Notes: generated from the sequence alone by a model not told the origin. Shown: positions 51,533 to 58,591, counted from the stretch's first letter. The stretch: 64,000 nt of DNA from Candidatus Calditenuis fumarioli (GCA_030059665.1 JANVYR010000001.1:672001-736000), one strand, 5' to 3'. Program-made: numbers and translations.

Positions 51533-51952
51533 TCACCCCTCCTTCTTCAGCACGCCCATGTCGATGAGGAGGTTCCTGATGTCGGCGATCGACTTGAACC
51601 TCCCCGCCTTGACCTGCAGGTACAGCTTCCTGTAGAGCGACCTGTCGATGACCCCCCTGTCCCTGAGCCTCCTCAGGTACCTCCTCTGCGGCCGGACCCG
51701 CATTATCCAGCGCTCCTTCTTCGTCAGCGTCGCGTACTTCCCTCCCTTCCTCACCCTGGTCTCCTTGACCCTGTTCCGCGTCTGGCCCCTGACCGGTGCC
51801 GCGTAGATCGCCCCCTCCTCGATGAGGGCCCTGACGTCCTCCCGCGTTATGGCGTCCGCTATGTCCTCGAGCCTCTCCGGGTCGAACCTCACCCGGTTCT
51901 CGCCGACGCCCATGATGTCGGCCGCGAGCCTCCGCTGGAGCTTCAGCTGCAT
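51533..51952 (-). CDS. rpl19e: 50S ribosomal protein L19e
   Basis: LQRRLAADIMGVGENRV, AITREDVRALI, WIMRVRPQRRYL, LYLQVKAG. Start is the ATG at 51952 or 51982. Confidence 0.95.
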   Translation of the reverse strand: MQLKLQRRLAADIMGVGENRVRFDPERLEDIADAITREDVRALIEEGAIYAAPVRGQTRNRVKETRVRKGGKYATLTKKERWIMRVRPQRRYLRRLRDRGVIDRSLYRKLYLQVKAGRFKSIADIRNLLIDMGVLKKEG

Positions 51953-52043
51953 CTCCCAATCGCTCCCCTCCGATCGACTCATAAACCATTCAGCGAGGTC
52001 GCAGGAGAAACGCAATATGCACCCGTCCTCTGGTCCAGTCGGC

Positions 52044-52919
52044 TTGACGGTGCGGAAGGCAGTCCTGACCGCCGCCGGCTTGGGGACGAGGCTTCTGCCT
52101 GCCACCAAGGAGCTGCCTAAGGAGATGCTCCCGATCTTCGTCCCGGGAAGGAACGGGCCGGTGCTGAAGCCGCTCCTCCAGGCCATCTTCGAGCAGCTCT
52201 ACGATCTGGGCGTTAGGGAGTTCTGCGTCGTCGTCGGCAGGGGTAAGAGGGCGATCGAGGACCACTTCACCCCCAACTGGGACTTCGTCGAGCGCCTGAG
52301 GTCCTCGGGCAAGGACTCGCTGGTGGAGGAGCTCGAGAGGTTCTACCGGATGATCGAGGACTCCTCGGTGGTCTGGGTGAACCAGCCCTCTCCGCTGGGG
52401 TTCGGGGACGCCGTGAGGAGGGCGAGGAGCTTCGTCGACGGGGACTTCTTCGTCTGCGCCGGTGACACCTACATCGCGTCCCGCAACGGCCGTCACCTGA
52501 GACGGCTCGCTGAGCTCCATCGGAGGACCGGGGCCGACGCGACGCTCCTGCTTAAGCAGGTCGAGGACCCGAGGAGGTTCGGCGTAGCGGTGGTGGAGGA
52601 CTCGGGGGAGGGCGGGATCCTCGCGGTGAAATCGGTCGTCGAGAAGCCGGCCCAGCCGCCGTCTCGGACGGTCATCCTCCCGTTCTACGTCTTCACGCCT
52701 GAGGTCTTCAGGGCCCTCGAGCGGATTGGACCAGGTTACGGCGGCGAGGTCCAGCTGACGGACGCCATCCAGCTCATGCTCACCGAGGGCAGGAAGGTCA
52801 GGGCGACGGCCCTCGACGGCGACGAGGTCTGGCTCGACGTGGGGACTCCGGAGGGTTACAGGGACGCGGTCCTCCTCTCGTACAGGTACGCGATGGAGGT
52901 GTCCGCAGGTGACCGGTGA
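52044..52919 (+). CDS. galU: UTP-glucose-1-phosphate uridylyltransferase
   Basis: AAGLGTRLLPATKELPKEMLP, PLGFGDAV, VEKP, EVQLTDA. Start approximate. Confidence 0.9.
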   Translation: MTVRKAVLTAAGLGTRLLPATKELPKEMLPIFVPGRNGPVLKPLLQAIFEQLYDLGVREFCVVVGRGKRAIEDHFTPNWDFVERLRSSGKDSLVEELERFYRMIEDSSVVWVNQPSPLGFGDAVRRARSFVDGDFFVCAGDTYIASRNGRHLRRLAELHRRTGADATLLLKQVEDPRRFGVAVVEDSGEGGILAVKSVVEKPAQPPSRTVILPFYVFTPEVFRALERIGPGYGGEVQLTDAIQLMLTEGRKVRATALDGDEVWLDVGTPEGYRDAVLLSYRYAMEVSAGDR

Positions 52920-54318
52920 GGGCCGCAACGCCTTCGTCTCGAGGGTCGTCGACGGGATCGACATCGGGTCCGTCTCGGTCGTCGGCCTCGGTTACGTCGG
53001 CCTGACGGTCGCCGTGTGCCTCGCATCGAGGGGCTTCAGGGTCACAGGGATCGACGTGGACGCCGAGAAGGTGGAGGCGGTCAACCGCGGCAGATCGCCC
53101 ATCTACGAGCCCGGCCTCGAGAGGCTCCTGAGGTCCTCGCTGAGAAGGGGGACGCTGAGGGCCACGACGGATTACGGCGAGCTTGTGGTGACCGATGTCA
53201 CGTTCATCACCGTCGGCACGCCCAGCCTCCCGGACGGCGGCATAGACCTGCGCTACGTCGTCGAGGCCTCCACGTCCATCGGAAGGGCCCTGAGGTCGAA
53301 GGAGGGGAAGCACCTGGTGGTGGTGAAGAGCACCGTGCTCCCCGGAACCACCGAGCGGGTCGTCGCGCCGACGGTGGCCGATTCGTCCGGGAAGCAGCTA
53401 GGCAGCTCCCTGCTCGTCTCCGTCAACCCCGAGTTCCTCAGGGAGGGCTCCGCGGTCAGGGACATGCTGAGGCCCGACAGGGTTGTGGTGGGCGACGTCG
53501 GCGACGGCTCCTCCCGGATCGTCGTCGAGCTTTACAGGGAGTTCTACCGGAGGAGGATGCCCAGGGTTCTCGTGACGAGCGCGGTGAACGCCGAGATGAT
53601 CAAGTACGCAAGCAACGTCTTCCTCGCCGCGAAGGTGAGCCTGATCAACGAGGTGGCCCGGATCTGCGAGAAGCTGCCGGGAGCCGACGTCACCGTGGTC
53701 GCTGAGGGAGTCGGGCTCGACGTGCGGATAGGCCCTCATTTCCTCAGGGCAGGGATAGGGTTCGGAGGGAGCTGCTTCCCGAAGGACGTTAGGGCCCTCA
53801 TGTCGCAGGCGAGGGAGCTGGGGATCGAGCCGGTGATGCTCAGGTCGGTCCTCGAGGTCAACGAGCGCCAGCCTCTGAGGGCGGTCGAGCTGGCCGAGGA
53901 GGTCGTCGGAGATCTGAGGGGTAAGAGGGCAGCGGTGCTCGGTCTTGCGTTCAAGCCCAACACCGACGACGTCCGGGAGTCGCCGGCCATCAGGCTGGTC
54001 GAGGAGCTCCTCAGGAGGGGCGCGGAGGTCAGGGCCTACGATCCGGCAGCGGGCCCCAACGCGGCCAGGGTGCTGCAGGGGAGGGCTGAGATAGTGGGGA
54101 GCGTGGAGGAGTGTCTGAGGGACGCGGACGTCTGCTTCGTCGCCACCGAGTGGGAGGAGTTCAGGACGCTGACCCCGGATACCTTCAAGGGCCTGATGAG
54201 GAGGGCCGTCGTGATAGACGGCAGGAGGGTCTTCGAGCCCTCGGTCTTCTCCAGGGAGCTGGTCTACAGGGCGATAGGGTTAGGGCCTACTGTGGATGCG
54301 CCCTCAGCGGCGCGCTAA
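52909..54318 (+). CDS. ugd: UDP-glucose/GDP-mannose dehydrogenase family
   Basis: GLGYVG, VGTP, NPEFLREG, GFGGSCFPKD, GLAFKPNTDDVRES. Confidence 0.93.
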   Translation: MTGEGRNAFVSRVVDGIDIGSVSVVGLGYVGLTVAVCLASRGFRVTGIDVDAEKVEAVNRGRSPIYEPGLERLLRSSLRRGTLRATTDYGELVVTDVTFITVGTPSLPDGGIDLRYVVEASTSIGRALRSKEGKHLVVVKSTVLPGTTERVVAPTVADSSGKQLGSSLLVSVNPEFLREGSAVRDMLRPDRVVVGDVGDGSSRIVVELYREFYRRRMPRVLVTSAVNAEMIKYASNVFLAAKVSLINEVARICEKLPGADVTVVAEGVGLDVRIGPHFLRAGIGFGGSCFPKDVRALMSQARELGIEPVMLRSVLEVNERQPLRAVELAEEVVGDLRGKRAAVLGLAFKPNTDDVRESPAIRLVEELLRRGAEVRAYDPAAGPNAARVLQGRAEIVGSVEECLRDADVCFVATEWEEFRTLTPDTFKGLMRRAVVIDGRRVFEPSVFSRELVYRAIGLGPTVDAPSAAR

Positions 54319-55254
54319 GTACCAGTCCACGTACCTCCTCACCGTCTCCTCGAATCCCACCCTGGGCCTCCAGCCGAGCTCCCGTTGGGCCTTCGAGCTG
54401 TCGCTGTAGCTCACCAGAGCCTCGTGCGGTGCGAGCTCCCTTCTCCTCACCTCGACCCTCCGGTCCATGAGCTCCATCATCAGCTCCGCTAGCCTCAGCA
54501 CGCTCTGCGGCTCCCCCCTCCCGAGGTTGTAGATCTCGCCGGGCCTTCCCCTCTCGGCCGCGAGGATCGTTCCCTCGACCACGTCGCCCACGTAGGTGAA
54601 GTCCCTCTCCGCAGGCCTGAAGACGCCGTCGACGGTCCTGCCGTTCACGTCCACCGGCTGTCCGGACGCTATCCTGTCGGCGAAGACCTTAAAGACGATG
54701 TTCGACCTGCATCGCTCGCCGACGACGTTGAAGTACCTGACCGTTACCACCTCGAGGCCGTAGGACCTAACGTACTCCTTGCAGAGCTCCTCGCCGATCC
54801 ACTTGCTGAGCGCGTACGGCCCCTTCGGCCTCGGAGGCATCTCCTCCCTCAGGGGAGGCTGGTGGTCGCCGTAGACGCTGCTGGAGGAGGCGAATACCAC
54901 CCGCGGTGACGGCTCGGTTGTCCTGGCAGCCTCGAGGACGTTGAGCGTGGTCCTGACGTTGTTATCGATGAAGAGGTGAGGTTGCTCGACGCTCAGGCGG
55001 TGGGATGCGAGAGCTGCCAGGTGGAAGACGACCTCTGGTTTGAACCTCTCGAGCACCGTTTTGACGGCGTTCAGGTCGTTCAGGTCCAGAAGGAGCGCGA
55101 TCAGTCTGCCCTCGCCCTTGGCGCGCAGCAGGTCGTCGAGGTAGTTCTCCCCCAGGCGCGGGTGGCCGAGTGCGACGACGTCCTCGCCGAGTCCGATCAG
55201 GCGCTCGACCAGATGGCTGCCGATGAAGCCGAGACCACCGGTGACGAGCATCAC
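54304..55254 (-). CDS. NAD-dependent nucleotide-sugar epimerase/dehydratase (SDR)
   Basis: TGGLGFIGSH, ASSSSVYG, YALSK, RYFNV, RDFTYVGD. Confidence 0.93.
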   Translation of the reverse strand: MMLVTGGLGFIGSHLVERLIGLGEDVVALGHPRLGENYLDDLLRAKGEGRLIALLLDLNDLNAVKTVLERFKPEVVFHLAALASHRLSVEQPHLFIDNNVRTTLNVLEAARTTEPSPRVVFASSSSVYGDHQPPLREEMPPRPKGPYALSKWIGEELCKEYVRSYGLEVVTVRYFNVVGERCRSNIVFKVFADRIASGQPVDVNGRTVDGVFRPAERDFTYVGDVVEGTILAAERGRPGEIYNLGRGEPQSVLRLAELMMELMDRRVEVRRRELAPHEALVSYSDSSKAQRELGWRPRVGFEETVRRYVDWYLARR

Positions 55255-55261
55255 GTCTGCT

Positions 55262-56872
55262 TCACCCGACGAGCTCGTCCACCATCATCGCCACCTCCCT
55301 TATGCCTGCGACCGAGGACCTGACGTCCTTGAGGATCGGAGCGGTCATCTTCTCAAGGCTCGACCTCGAAAGCTCACCCCGGGCGAAGTCCGTGTACGTC
55401 TTGAGCAGCGTCCTGAGCGACTCGTTCAGGAGCGTTGAGCTCCGTTGGACCTCTGAGGTCATCTTGCTGACCTCGGGACCGCGGTACGATATCCGCCTCA
55501 GCTCCTCGAGGATCGCATCGGAGGACCTCTTCACCCTCTGGACCCTCTCCCTCAGCGCGGGGAGCGCCGACTTCTCCGGAGACCTCAAAACCCGGGATAT
55601 CTCCTCGACCTCCACCAGCACCTCCTCGATAGCCTCCCTGACCCTGGAGAGCGCGGCCCTGTCGCTCTCGGCGATCTTCGGTCTCGAACCCCTCCTGACC
55701 CTGAACTGGGCCAGAACGGATCCGAGGACCAGCGCCAGAACGCCGATCGCCAGCGCGTATGCGCCCCACGGCTGGGCCGGAGATCCGGAGAGGCTGAGGC
55801 GGAGCGAGCTAAGCGGTGCGGGGCCCGGCAAGGGCACCGGGGACCTCAGATCGGCCACCGTGCCTCCGGTTGAGAGGAGCTGGACGACGTAGTCCGGGAC
55901 CTCCGCGAGCCTGACGCCCTCCGGCAGCGCTACCCTCACCCTGAAGCTCTCGACCGGGGCCTCGACCGGCAGGAATGGGTGGACCTCCAGACCGCCGTCG
56001 CGGAGGACGTACAGCCCGGCGTTGGAGACGTCGAGCAGCACCGAGAAGCCGTACCTCCATCCCTGCCGCAGCTCGTACCTCTCAGGCGTCAGGTAGACCG
56101 TGAGCTTCCCGGCTTCGGGGTCGAAGGAGCTCCTGAGGGTTCCGAGGTCGTCGCCGACCCTGAGGACCTTGACCGATCTCGCCTCGGGAAGGACCAGATC
56201 GACGGAGCTGATGCCGTTGACGTCGTCGTTCCTGAGGACCAGGCTCAACCTGAGCTTGCCGGAGTAGGGCTCGAACTCCTCGACAAGCGACTCGACCGAG
56301 AGCAGCCTGACTCCGGTGCCGGTGAAGGTGAAGGCGTTAGCCGATGGTTTGCCCGCGGGCAGCTCACCGAAGGACCGGCTGGCCGAGCTCTCCGCCTTCT
56401 GGTAATCCGTCGGGACCTGGGAGAAGGACGAGTCGGTCGGCAGGCGTAACGTCACGTTGGCCGAGTAGGTCATCCCCTCCATCACCGGGACGTCGACGAG
56501 CCTGAGGACGTAGGTGTTGGCGGTGCGCTGCTCTACCTTGCCCCGGAGCGCGTACCAGACCTCGACCACCTGCGACGTGGGCCTGATCTCGATCGCCACC
56601 GAGCCGTCGTCGCGCTTCCTGACATCGAACGACGCTCCGGAGACGTAGTGGGAGATCAGACCTCCGGCGTCCTCGCTCGGCACCAGCAACGTGAACGCCG
56701 ATCCTCCGTGTCCGGTGATCCTGTCTTTCACGATCACCAGCCCGTACCCTGTGACCTCGACGGTCCTCTCGACGAAGGCCTGGGAGTCCTCGGCATGGGC
56801 CGCGATAACTGCGGCGAGAAGCGCCAGCGTCATTGCCGTTGCCAGCAGGTGCGTCTTCATTTCCCCATGCAC
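55262..56872 (-). CDS. Type I membrane protein, Ribophorin-I (RPN1/Ost1)-like
   Basis: Signal peptide, two beta-rich domains (VERTVEV; RYELRQGWR; VALPEG), one TM helix and a C-terminal helical bundle. Confidence 0.65.
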   Translation of the reverse strand: MHGEMKTHLLATAMTLALLAAVIAAHAEDSQAFVERTVEVTGYGLVIVKDRITGHGGSAFTLLVPSEDAGGLISHYVSGASFDVRKRDDGSVAIEIRPTSQVVEVWYALRGKVEQRTANTYVLRLVDVPVMEGMTYSANVTLRLPTDSSFSQVPTDYQKAESSASRSFGELPAGKPSANAFTFTGTGVRLLSVESLVEEFEPYSGKLRLSLVLRNDDVNGISSVDLVLPEARSVKVLRVGDDLGTLRSSFDPEAGKLTVYLTPERYELRQGWRYGFSVLLDVSNAGLYVLRDGGLEVHPFLPVEAPVESFRVRVALPEGVRLAEVPDYVVQLLSTGGTVADLRSPVPLPGPAPLSSLRLSLSGSPAQPWGAYALAIGVLALVLGSVLAQFRVRRGSRPKIAESDRAALSRVREAIEEVLVEVEEISRVLRSPEKSALPALRERVQRVKRSSDAILEELRRISYRGPEVSKMTSEVQRSSTLLNESLRTLLKTYTDFARGELSRSSLEKMTAPILKDVRSSVAGIREVAMMVDELVG

Positions 56873-56959: not shown

Positions 56960-57565
56960 ATGCAGGAGATCGAGCCCCGGGTGCGGCCCTTCGACCCCCA
57001 CAAGAGGGGATACAGGGTGATGGGCGTCGCGGAGAGCTTCTCGCCCGACCAGCCGACGGCCACGCTCGGGGCAGTCGTCATGAGGGCCGACCTGATAGTG
57101 GACGGAGTGGCTCTGGGGAGGTGCAGGGTGATGGGGACCGACGCGACGGAGGCGGTGATCTCCTTGTACCGGTCGCTCGGAAGGGACGACGTCAACCTGA
57201 TACTTTTGGGCGGGTGCATCATCAGCCTCTTCAACGTGGTCAGGGTCAGGGAGGTGGCATCCGCGACGGGGCTGCCTGTGGTCTGCGTGACGTACAACCC
57301 ATCCGAGGGGCTCGAGGAGGTCCTCGTGCGGAGGTTCGGTCCGGATGCGGAGGAGAGGCTGGCCGCATACCGGGAGCTCGGAGGGAGGGAGGAGCTGAGG
57401 CTGAAGACCGGTTACACTGTCTACGTCAGGAGGGTCGGCGTCTCGAGGAGGGCAACGGAGGTGATGCTGAATTCGCTCACCGTCAGCGGCAGGGTACCCG
57501 AACCGGTCAGGCTAGCGAAGCTGGTGGCGAGGGCCGCGAGGTCGTTCCTCGGATCTTCACCGTGA
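56960..57565 (+). CDS. DUF99 family (endonuclease V-like) protein
   Basis: MGVAESF, GTDAT, GCIISLFNV, GRVPEPVRLA. Confidence 0.88.
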   Translation: MQEIEPRVRPFDPHKRGYRVMGVAESFSPDQPTATLGAVVMRADLIVDGVALGRCRVMGTDATEAVISLYRSLGRDDVNLILLGGCIISLFNVVRVREVASATGLPVVCVTYNPSEGLEEVLVRRFGPDAEERLAAYRELGGREELRLKTGYTVYVRRVGVSRRATEVMLNSLTVSGRVPEPVRLAKLVARAARSFLGSSP

Positions 57566-58591
57566 GACGACGGTACCGGGCGGGACCACCACCGGCTCCT
57601 CCGGCCTCCCCACGAGGACCGCACCGTCTTGGACGACGGATCCTGGACCGATCACGCACCTCTCCACCCTGGAGCCTGCGCCGATCCTGGCGTCCTCGAG
57701 CACCAGCGATTCCCTGACGGCCGTGCCGCGTCCGACGGTTGCGCCCCTCATCACCGCAGATGCGATCACGGAGGCCTCAGGACCGATTGTGACCAGATCG
57801 TCGACGAAGGACGTCCTGAGAACCGATCCGCTAAGGACCTTCGCTTCCCTCCCCAGGTGAAAACCACCTCCCAGCTCGCGGTTCAGGTAATCGACGTTGG
57901 CCCTGAGCAGCTCCGCAGGCCCTCCCAGGTCGAACCACCAGCTCCCCTCCGACCTCAGGACCCCGATCCTCCTGCCCCTCTTGACCAGGGCGACCACCGC
58001 GTCCGTCAGCTCGTACTCTCCCCTCGGAGAGGGAGGCACGGAGGAGGCCGCATCGACGACCTCGCCCGGAAGGACGTAGATCCCCGAGTTGACCAGCGCA
58101 GGAGGCCTCACGTCCCTCGACTTCTCCGCGATCCCCCTGAGCAGGCCTCCCTCCACCTCGAGCGTGCCGAACCTCCAAGGGTCATCCCGGACCACGCCGA
58201 TCAGACCTCCGTCAAGCCCCTTCACCCGCACCATCTCCAGCAGCTCCTCGAGCGGGCCCCTCGAGACCGTGACGTCGCCGTAGACCAGAACGAACCTGTC
58301 CTCTCCCGCAATGAAGTCCCTCGCGGCCAGCAGCGCGTCCGCCGTCCCCCGAGGCCTCTCCTGGGCGGAGAAGCTCAGCCTCACCTCTCTAACGTCCGAC
58401 AGGGCCTCCCTGATCCGGTCCGCCATGTACCCGACGACGACTCGGACCTCCTCAACGCCCACCTCGGAGAGGGCCTCGATCGCCCGCCGCACGACGGGTT
58501 TGCCGGCCACCGGCAGGAGGTGCTTCGGCCTCTCCGACGTGAGGGGGTTCATCCTCGATCCGATCCCGGCAGCTAGCACGACGGCCCTCAA
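57557..58591 (-). CDS. Sugar-phosphate nucleotidyltransferase (GlmU/RmlA-like with beta-helix)
   Basis: LAAGIGSRMNPLT...PKHLL, GTADA, EK, RGEYELTDA and hexapeptide tail. Confidence 0.92.
   Translation of the reverse strand: MRAVVLAAGIGSRMNPLTSERPKHLLPVAGKPVVRRAIEALSEVGVEEVRVVVGYMADRIREALSDVREVRLSFSAQERPRGTADALLAARDFIAGEDRFVLVYGDVTVSRGPLEELLEMVRVKGLDGGLIGVVRDDPWRFGTLEVEGGLLRGIAEKSRDVRPPALVNSGIYVLPGEVVDAASSVPPSPRGEYELTDAVVALVKRGRRIGVLRSEGSWWFDLGGPAELLRANVDYLNRELGGGFHLGREAKVLSGSVLRTSFVDDLVTIGPEASVIASAVMRGATVGRGTAVRESLVLEDARIGAGSRVERCVIGPGSVVQDGAVLVGRPEEPVVVPPGTVVSR

Follow-up and report, generated by a model that had tools for sequence, protein, structure and literature searches.

The window analysed here, a stretch of 64,000 nucleotides from Candidatus Calditenuis fumarioli (GCA_030059665.1, JANVYR010000001.1:672001-736000), carries on its minus strand a gene that almost certainly encodes a homologue of ribophorin I (RPN1 in human, Ost1 in yeast). 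The homology to the eukaryotic RPN1/Ost1 proteins and to the OST1 of Asgard archaea extends over the full length of the protein, cytoplasmic tail included. Ribophorin I, a helper subunit of the enzyme that glycosylates proteins in eukaryotes, usually counts among the eukaryotic signature proteins known from Asgard archaea, and descriptions of the archaeal oligosaccharyltransferase (OST) usually present it as consisting of AglB alone. Calditenuis, an archaeon of hot springs, belongs, according to NCBI, to the order Caldarchaeales, formerly 'Aigarchaeota', and its protein is an Ost1 homologue from the TACK archaea. The source genome is archaeal, has a size of 1.57 Mb and is 91% complete; the G+C content of the window is about 65%. 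The explanation that we favour adds to the homology a role beside AglB and the ribosome. Taken as a whole it is given a probability of about 0.55, a figure that is set by its functional part.

Sequence homology to ribophorin I

The decisive matches were obtained because the family profile was widened from the level of the order to that of the phylum. This widened profile (A4), to which 20 additional genomes of the phylum contributed homologues, aligned with human RPN1 at an E-value of 6.2e-26, profile positions 223-538 being matched to residues 275-607, that is up to the C-terminal residue of the human protein. It also matched the whole domain of the structure 8WHN, which is the crystal structure of the cytoplasmic domain of OST1 from the Lokiarchaeon Ca. 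Prometheoarchaeum syntrophicum MK-D1 (E 1.2e-14), and yeast Ost1 (E 3.9e-11), with unrelated helical proteins appearing from 1e-4 only. The matches to the RPN1/Ost1 entries are collinear over the second beta domain, the transmembrane (TM) helix and the tail. The profile built at the level of the order (A1) had reached 8WHN at E 0.0044 only, amid coiled-coil noise, and no RPN1 was found with the lumenal profile of the same level (A2).

Five pairs of short motifs had been proposed in the original prediction, and all of them are recovered in register and in the same order in the alignment of the A4 profile with human RPN1 (6s7o_E). The Calditenuis sides of the pairs were placed by reading the profile consensus against the translation. 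The pairs VKRTVDL/VERTVEV and FLTITSMTRVIEV/LLSVESLVEEFEP (human first) lie in a weak stretch of 13.6 bits, and the pairs RFPLFGGWK/RYELRQGWR, VKIILPEG/VRVALPEG and LVAGKLKKDTY/FARGELSRSSL in a stretch of 80 bits. The last pair belongs to the tail, where the motif G-x-x-S-R-x-x-Y/L is located at the turn between helix 3 and helix 4. The consensus of the family at this turn is y-r-r-G-e-i-s-k-e-e-Y, to be compared with L-V-A-G-K-L-K-K-D-T-Y in human RPN1 and Y-K-R-G-K-L-P-S-K-A-A-Y in MK-D1. In the latter protein the shared motif R-G-x-L/I-x-S/K-x-x-Y is included in the domain that the profile matches as a whole. Outside the tail, the residues G44 and D50 of the first beta domain are invariant across the family.

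The Pfam family Ribophorin_I (PF04597) recognizes the protein only through its relatives. Orthologues that are 69-71% identical match PF04597 in domain 2 (positions about 275-358 of 437), and one of them reaches the curated cut-off (25.2 bits for a threshold of 25). An exhaustive phmmer search recovered about 30 full-length relatives with lengths near 530 amino acids, 11 of 29 matching PF04597; in the phylum-wide set the match is found in 18 of 32 members, with a best E-value of 1e-13. A word-indexed homologue search, with the single protein or with alignment A1, returned five close orthologues only, and a six-frame search of the whole genome with PF04597 misses the Ost1 gene even at E<=10. 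Among the neighbours retrieved from the ESM Atlas are archaeal clusters named 'hypothetical' and 'Ribophorin I domain-containing', together with clusters of the eukaryotic OST subunit 1.

Fold comparison with RPN1, Ost1 and other proteins

An AlphaFold2 model of the Ost1 protein was obtained from an alignment of 29 sequences (mean predicted local distance difference test score, pLDDT, of 88.6). When it was compared with the PDB by Foldseek, the first eight matches were all human or yeast RPN1/Ost1 chains (8b6l_O at 1.2e-20, 8pn9_E, 6s7o_E, 6ezn_A and others, with E-values up to 6.6e-14), and the next fold appeared at 4e-7. With VIA-align, the Z-scores for RPN1/Ost1 range from 20.6 to 24.3, the highest being reached with RPN1 over 476 residues (28-528 of the model against 29-594 of RPN1). 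Human RPN1 (6S7O and 8PN9, chain E; 8B6L, chain O, in OST-A at the Sec61 translocon) displays the same order of domains and a fold that corresponds over the full length, with the five motifs collinear. The identity between the two proteins is only about 10-14%, the lumenal domains are shorter in Calditenuis (536 amino acids in total, against 607) and the relative orientation of the domains differs in the model (root-mean-square deviation, rmsd, of about 20 A over the full length). Yeast Ost1 (6EZN, 6C26 and 8AGB) shares the two lumenal beta-sandwich domains and the TM helix (Z 23.5, rmsd 8 A, 348 residues); it lacks the cytoplasmic four-helix bundle that is present in the Calditenuis protein.

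An aminopeptidase-N-like fold alone had been named beforehand as an example of what would speak against ribophorin I, and it is effectively refuted by this comparison. The M1 aminopeptidases (ERAP1, LTA4H) are similar in one lumenal domain, with a Z-score of about 12.5-13 over about 160 residues, that is half the value obtained with RPN1. They give no sequence-profile signal, and the match includes neither the TM helix nor the tail; conversely, the Calditenuis protein has no catalytic domain.

Two results weigh against the homology and have to be set beside these matches. The protein used alone gives only noise in Pfam, NCBIfam and phmmer searches of the PDB, below every Pfam threshold. The fold search with the isolated tail is not specific either, since designed bundles and FAT domains are retrieved and 8WHN comes at rank 23. 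Together, the profile, fold and motif evidence nevertheless strongly supports the prediction of an Ost1/RPN1 homologue, cytosolic bundle included, in a TACK archaeon.

Anatomy of the protein

The architecture announced for the protein, with a signal peptide, two beta-rich domains, one TM helix and a cytoplasmic helical bundle of about 130 residues, corresponds to both the sequence and the AlphaFold2 model, where the bundle comprises about 135 residues. The coordinates of each part are listed in Table 1. The longest reading frame begins at a GTG codon; the ATG at position 56860, four codons downstream, is the likelier start and gives a protein of 532 amino acids. It is preferred because this is where a publicly available copy of the protein (P0035) begins. 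From this codon the sequence reads M-K-T-H, followed by 15 hydrophobic residues, A-H-A and then E-D, which has the features of a classical signal peptide. The region is modelled as a helix (residues 2-25), and the orthologues display the same N-terminal layout.

In the model, strands are found only between residues 32 and 363, in two blocks (32-185 and 191-363), followed by one helix (369-393) and four long helices (402-535). The TM helix precedes the basic segment R-V-R-R-G-S-R-P-K, in agreement with the positive-inside rule, and the tail has a predicted isoelectric point of 9.7 from residue 394 to the end. Modelled alone, the tail forms a four-helix bundle with a pLDDT of 95.8. A type I topology is predicted from sequence and model, the signal peptide being cleavable and the beta domains being followed by a single TM helix. 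The OST1 of MK-D1 is likewise an archaeal type I membrane protein with a cytoplasmic four-helix bundle; it originates from an Asgard phylum, whereas the Calditenuis protein comes from the Aigarchaeota.

Distribution of the family and probable age of the cytoplasmic bundle

A search with the family profile detected homologues in 37 of the 41 relatives belonging to the order, and the family is present in 206 of the 401 sampled genomes of the phylum, which represent 97 of 158 genera. As these homologues are full-length, the reading frame at 55262-56872 is confirmed as a real gene and not a chance open reading frame (ORF). The closest named relative of the gene is in a metagenome-assembled genome of Ca. 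Calditenuis, where Ost1 is 69% identical and the neighbouring proteins are 75-90% identical. All the named public copies listed are annotated as 'hypothetical protein'. The distribution is uneven: some well-sampled families have no homologue (0 of 64 genomes in one family), and several families with complete, presumably cultured, genomes give marginal matches only. In the Calditenuis genome itself a second match to the family (C1:201685-202029, E 7e-4) is limited to the TM helix and a coiled-coil region and looks non-specific.

The bundle had been described in the original prediction as of metazoan type. This qualification does not hold, since the same domain is present in the Lokiarchaeal OST1 (8WHN) and in most of the homologues across the phylum, and for this reason the bundle looks ancestral. 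One family departs from this pattern: its homologues have open frames of about 415-450 amino acids that match up to the TM helix only and, like yeast Ost1, have no bundle.

Proposed function and alternative explanations

RPN1 has a role in the mammalian OST-A translocon, as seen in the structures 6S7O and 8B6L. By analogy, the Calditenuis Ost1 may act at the plasma membrane beside the single AglB/STT3 oligosaccharyltransferase, as a partner without catalytic function. Its outer beta domains would handle the emerging acceptor polypeptides next to AglB, and its basic cytoplasmic bundle would dock on ribosomes translating at SecY, so that N-glycosylation would be coupled to co-translational export. 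Docking on the ribosome is proposed on account of the same role of RPN1 in OST-A, of a similar proposal made for the Lokiarchaeal domain and of the behaviour of the MK-D1 tail, which has been reported to interact with eukaryotic ribosomes; the Calditenuis tail is homologous to the MK-D1 tail and basic. We give this coupling of AglB and ribosome an even chance. More tentatively, an Ost1 with a ribosome-docking bundle could belong to the ancient core proteins of both TACK and Asgard archaea and make up, together with AglB, a minimal OST of two subunits which docks at the plasma membrane on translating ribosomes; we consider this broader proposal somewhat less probable than the coupling itself.

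An AglB/STT3 of 713 amino acids, with about 13-14 hydrophobic segments, is encoded on contig 3 of the Calditenuis genome. Several observations argue against a common role with Ost1. AglB lies on another contig than Ost1, among housekeeping genes (glycerol-phosphate, FEN1 and PAC2-type genes), and no accessory candidates were found around it in this genome. When the neighbouring genes were clustered over 22 Ost1 loci, AglB was next to Ost1 in none of them. Outside the Caldarchaeales the neighbours are mostly unrelated to glycosylation (PolD, reverse gyrase, PCNA, glycine-cleavage P protein), and the nucleotide-sugar genes found beside Ost1 could serve any glycan pathway and not N-glycosylation alone. 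Finally, Ost5/TMEM258 (PF05251), the partner in subcomplex I, with which human RPN1 is associated in a complex of eight to nine subunits, has no match at E<=1 in this 91%-complete genome, the protein sought being a short TM protein.

The first alternative is that the protein is a true Ost1 homologue without any role with AglB, for instance a stand-alone receptor of the ribosome or translocon, or a chaperone acting on exported or S-layer proteins, the recruitment into the OST having occurred later, in the line of the Asgard archaea and eukaryotes. The separation of AglB from Ost1, the failure to detect other OST subunits and the wide conservation of the gene beside varied neighbours all agree with this explanation. 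The gene order inside the Caldarchaeales speaks against it. In four other genomes of this order Ost1 is located beside genes for a DUF354 protein, a Glycos_transf_4 protein (MraY/WecA/Alg7/AglH-type), a UDP-GlcNAc 3-dehydrogenase-like protein and a sugar dehydrogenase-like protein, and in three further arrangements it is accompanied by the epimerase or by UDP-glucose 6-dehydrogenase (UGDH). The context therefore ties Ost1 repeatedly to genes of glycan precursors and of lipid-linked sugars, and not directly to AglB. To our knowledge, the family is moreover an OST subunit in every system studied (the yeast and mammalian OST), which also counts against a stand-alone protein. Such a protein is rather unlikely, and a partner of AglB is preferred.

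The second alternative is the one that the original prediction had put forward, namely a multi-subunit OST of eukaryotic type (Ost1, Ost3/6, Wbp1, Swp1, Dad1 and others) assembled around AglB. Ost1 and AglB are both present, and OST3/6 is stated to occur in TACK archaea as well (PMC11417166). A six-frame Pfam search of the genome gave no match to OST48/Wbp1 (PF03345), Swp1/ribophorin II (PF05817) or Dad1/Ost2 (PF02109), this kind of search being insensitive to divergent archaeal forms, and it revealed nothing convincing for the beta subunit in the complex of translocon-associated proteins (TRAP). The only match to OST3_OST6 (PF04756) scores 23.8 bits, below the cut-off, and corresponds to a soluble thioredoxin of 157 amino acids that carries a W-C-M-P-C motif and lacks TM helices, whereas in Ost3/Ost6 the thioredoxin domain precedes four TM helices. 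No Wbp1-like or membrane-bound OST3-like gene accompanies AglB and Ost1 among the matches. MK-D1 differs in this respect, as its genome encodes OST3/6 and TRAP subunits and none were found in that of Calditenuis. Subcomplex III, made up of Wbp1/OST48, Swp1/ribophorin II and Ost2/Dad1, has furthermore been found in Heimdallarchaeia only (Eme et al. 2023). The negative results carry little weight, since the Ost1 gene itself escaped this type of search; even so, a complex of this type is improbable, and the two proteins AglB and Ost1 are all that was found of it.

The last alternative, a non-homologous surface protein with generic Ig-like or aminopeptidase-N-like domains and a coiled-coil tail, could invoke the missing Pfam match of the protein itself, the M1 N-domains at a Z-score of about 13, the failure of profile A2 and a bundle fold that is common, but it is effectively refuted by the fold and profile searches, in which the RPN1/Ost1 chains stand far above other folds, three independent RPN1/Ost1 entries are matched by A4 and an orthologue passes the Pfam cut-off.

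Relation to previous reports

No prokaryotic homologues of the non-catalytic OST subunits were found by Lombard (2016). Asgard homologues of such subunits are credited to Zaremba-Niedzwiedzka et al. (2017) in a passage of the Agl24 paper, and Eme et al. (2023) added further subunits to the Ost1 and Ost3 previously reported in Asgard archaea. In a single sentence, a paper published in 2024 in the Journal of Biological Chemistry (PMC11417166) places OST1 and OST3/6 in eukaryotes and in both TACK and Asgard archaea; the same work solved 8WHN and reported that the domain from MK-D1 is able to interact with eukaryotic ribosomes. The original prediction had described RPN1 homologues as highlighted in Asgard archaea, a premise that is slightly dated in view of that sentence. 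The family is thus already known, from Asgard archaea and briefly from TACK archaea, and does not represent a new kind of system. In the library searched, we found no paper dealing with the TACK or Aigarchaeal Ost1 protein itself.

What is added here is that the full-length Ost1 with its tail is a conserved gene of the Aigarchaeota, missed by Pfam alone in this copy. The annotation of these genes can be improved, and they provide thermophilic, non-Asgard proteins for probing the binding of Ost1 to AglB and to ribosomes. If the proposal of a two-subunit OST is true, co-translational N-glycosylation coupled to the translocon would be older than the Asgard-eukaryote lineage. The 'single-subunit archaeal OST' of the textbooks would in that case be valid only for model organisms without an Ost1 gene.

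Genes surrounding Ost1

The genes announced around Ost1 (an epimerase close to it, with galU, ugd and a GlmU-like gene) are all located in the window as predicted (Table 1), and within the genus this gene order is kept. The epimerase is probably co-transcribed with Ost1, since both genes share a strand and 7 nt separate the Ost1 stop codon from the epimerase. The two genes remain neighbours in Calditenuis (L002, L012) and are found side by side again in an unrelated family (L046, L047), and UGDH adjoins Ost1 in one further family. The true start of the GalU/AglF-like ORF is probably later than the one listed, because the profile match begins at residue 77.

Table 1. Parts of the Ost1 gene, genes around it and related loci in other genomes (positions in the window unless a locus is given).
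Feature	Position	Strand	Remarks
Ost1/ribophorin I homologue gene	55262-56872	-	536 aa from GTG 56872; stop codon 55262-55264
Signal peptide, residues 5-27	56792-56860	-	K-containing n-region, hydrophobic core, A-H-A cleavage motif; predicted
Beta-sandwich domain 1, extracellular, residues 32-186	56315-56779	-	Starts with the conserved V-E-R-T-V-E-V strand
Beta-sandwich domain 2, extracellular, residues 189-365	55778-56308	-	Motifs R-Y-E-L-R-Q-G-W-R and V-R-V-A-L-P-E-G
Single TM helix, residues 369-393	55694-55768	-	Sequence and model; aligns with the TM helix of RPN1
Cytoplasmic four-helix bundle, residues 402-535	55268-55669	-	Model; profile matches to 8WHN and to the C-terminus of human RPN1
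NAD-dependent sugar-nucleotide epimerase/dehydratase (short-chain dehydrogenase/reductase, SDR)	54304-55254	-	7 nt after the Ost1 stop
UDP-glucose 6-dehydrogenase	52909-54318	+	AglM is the best NCBIfam model, scoring under its cut-off; convergent with the epimerase
GalU/AglF-like sugar-1-phosphate nucleotidyltransferase	51822-52919	+	Profile match from residue 77
Archaeal GlmU-like sugar-1-phosphate nucleotidyltransferase	57557-58591	-	Left-handed beta-helix tail
Endonuclease dU-like gene	56960-57565	+	Divergent from Ost1; NCBIfam NF052283, 173.6 bits (cut-off 200)
DUF354 and Glycos_transf_4 pair next to Ost1	L036:7588-9689		Other Caldarchaeales; equivalent stretches in L037-L039
Short Ost1 homologue	L046:5995-7239	+	Same family as L047 and about a dozen further genomes
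Short Ost1 homologue	L047:5923-7212	-	Same family as L046 and about a dozen further genomes

DUF354, which we take to be a family of GT-B type, may represent in this lineage the glycosyltransferase acting after AglH. Its identification with Agl24 was considered and dropped; PF04007 has no match in Sulfolobus acidocaldarius, where Agl24 was defined. In the Calditenuis genome 14 kb separate the DUF354 homologue from AglB; contig 2 carries the AglH-type gene. The longest ORF of this homologue (contig 3:54335-55726, plus strand; L058:2335-3726) has 464 amino acids, and the DUF354 match is found from residue 126 only; the long N-terminus is either an N-terminal extension or the result of an over-called start.

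The endonuclease dU-like gene, located upstream of Ost1, encodes a protein that shares 53% identity with its Ca. Calditenuis counterpart and has no relation to glycosylation. Further along the minus strand of the window, the segment 59058-63016 contains the genes for an RNA 3'-phosphate cyclase, a YchF/Obg-like GTPase with a TGS domain and the tRNA-Ile2 agmatidine synthetase TiaS. These RNA-related housekeeping genes confirm that the host is an archaeon. In other genomes, gcvPA and gcvPB, the genes for the two subunits of the glycine-cleavage P protein, are located upstream of Ost1 on the opposite strand in 7 of the 22 loci, distributed among five families (L043:2497-5420, L044, L046, L047, L048, L053 and L054). 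The pair adjoins Ost1 directly in three of these loci and is one or two small genes away in the four others, which represents a conserved synteny with no obvious functional link.

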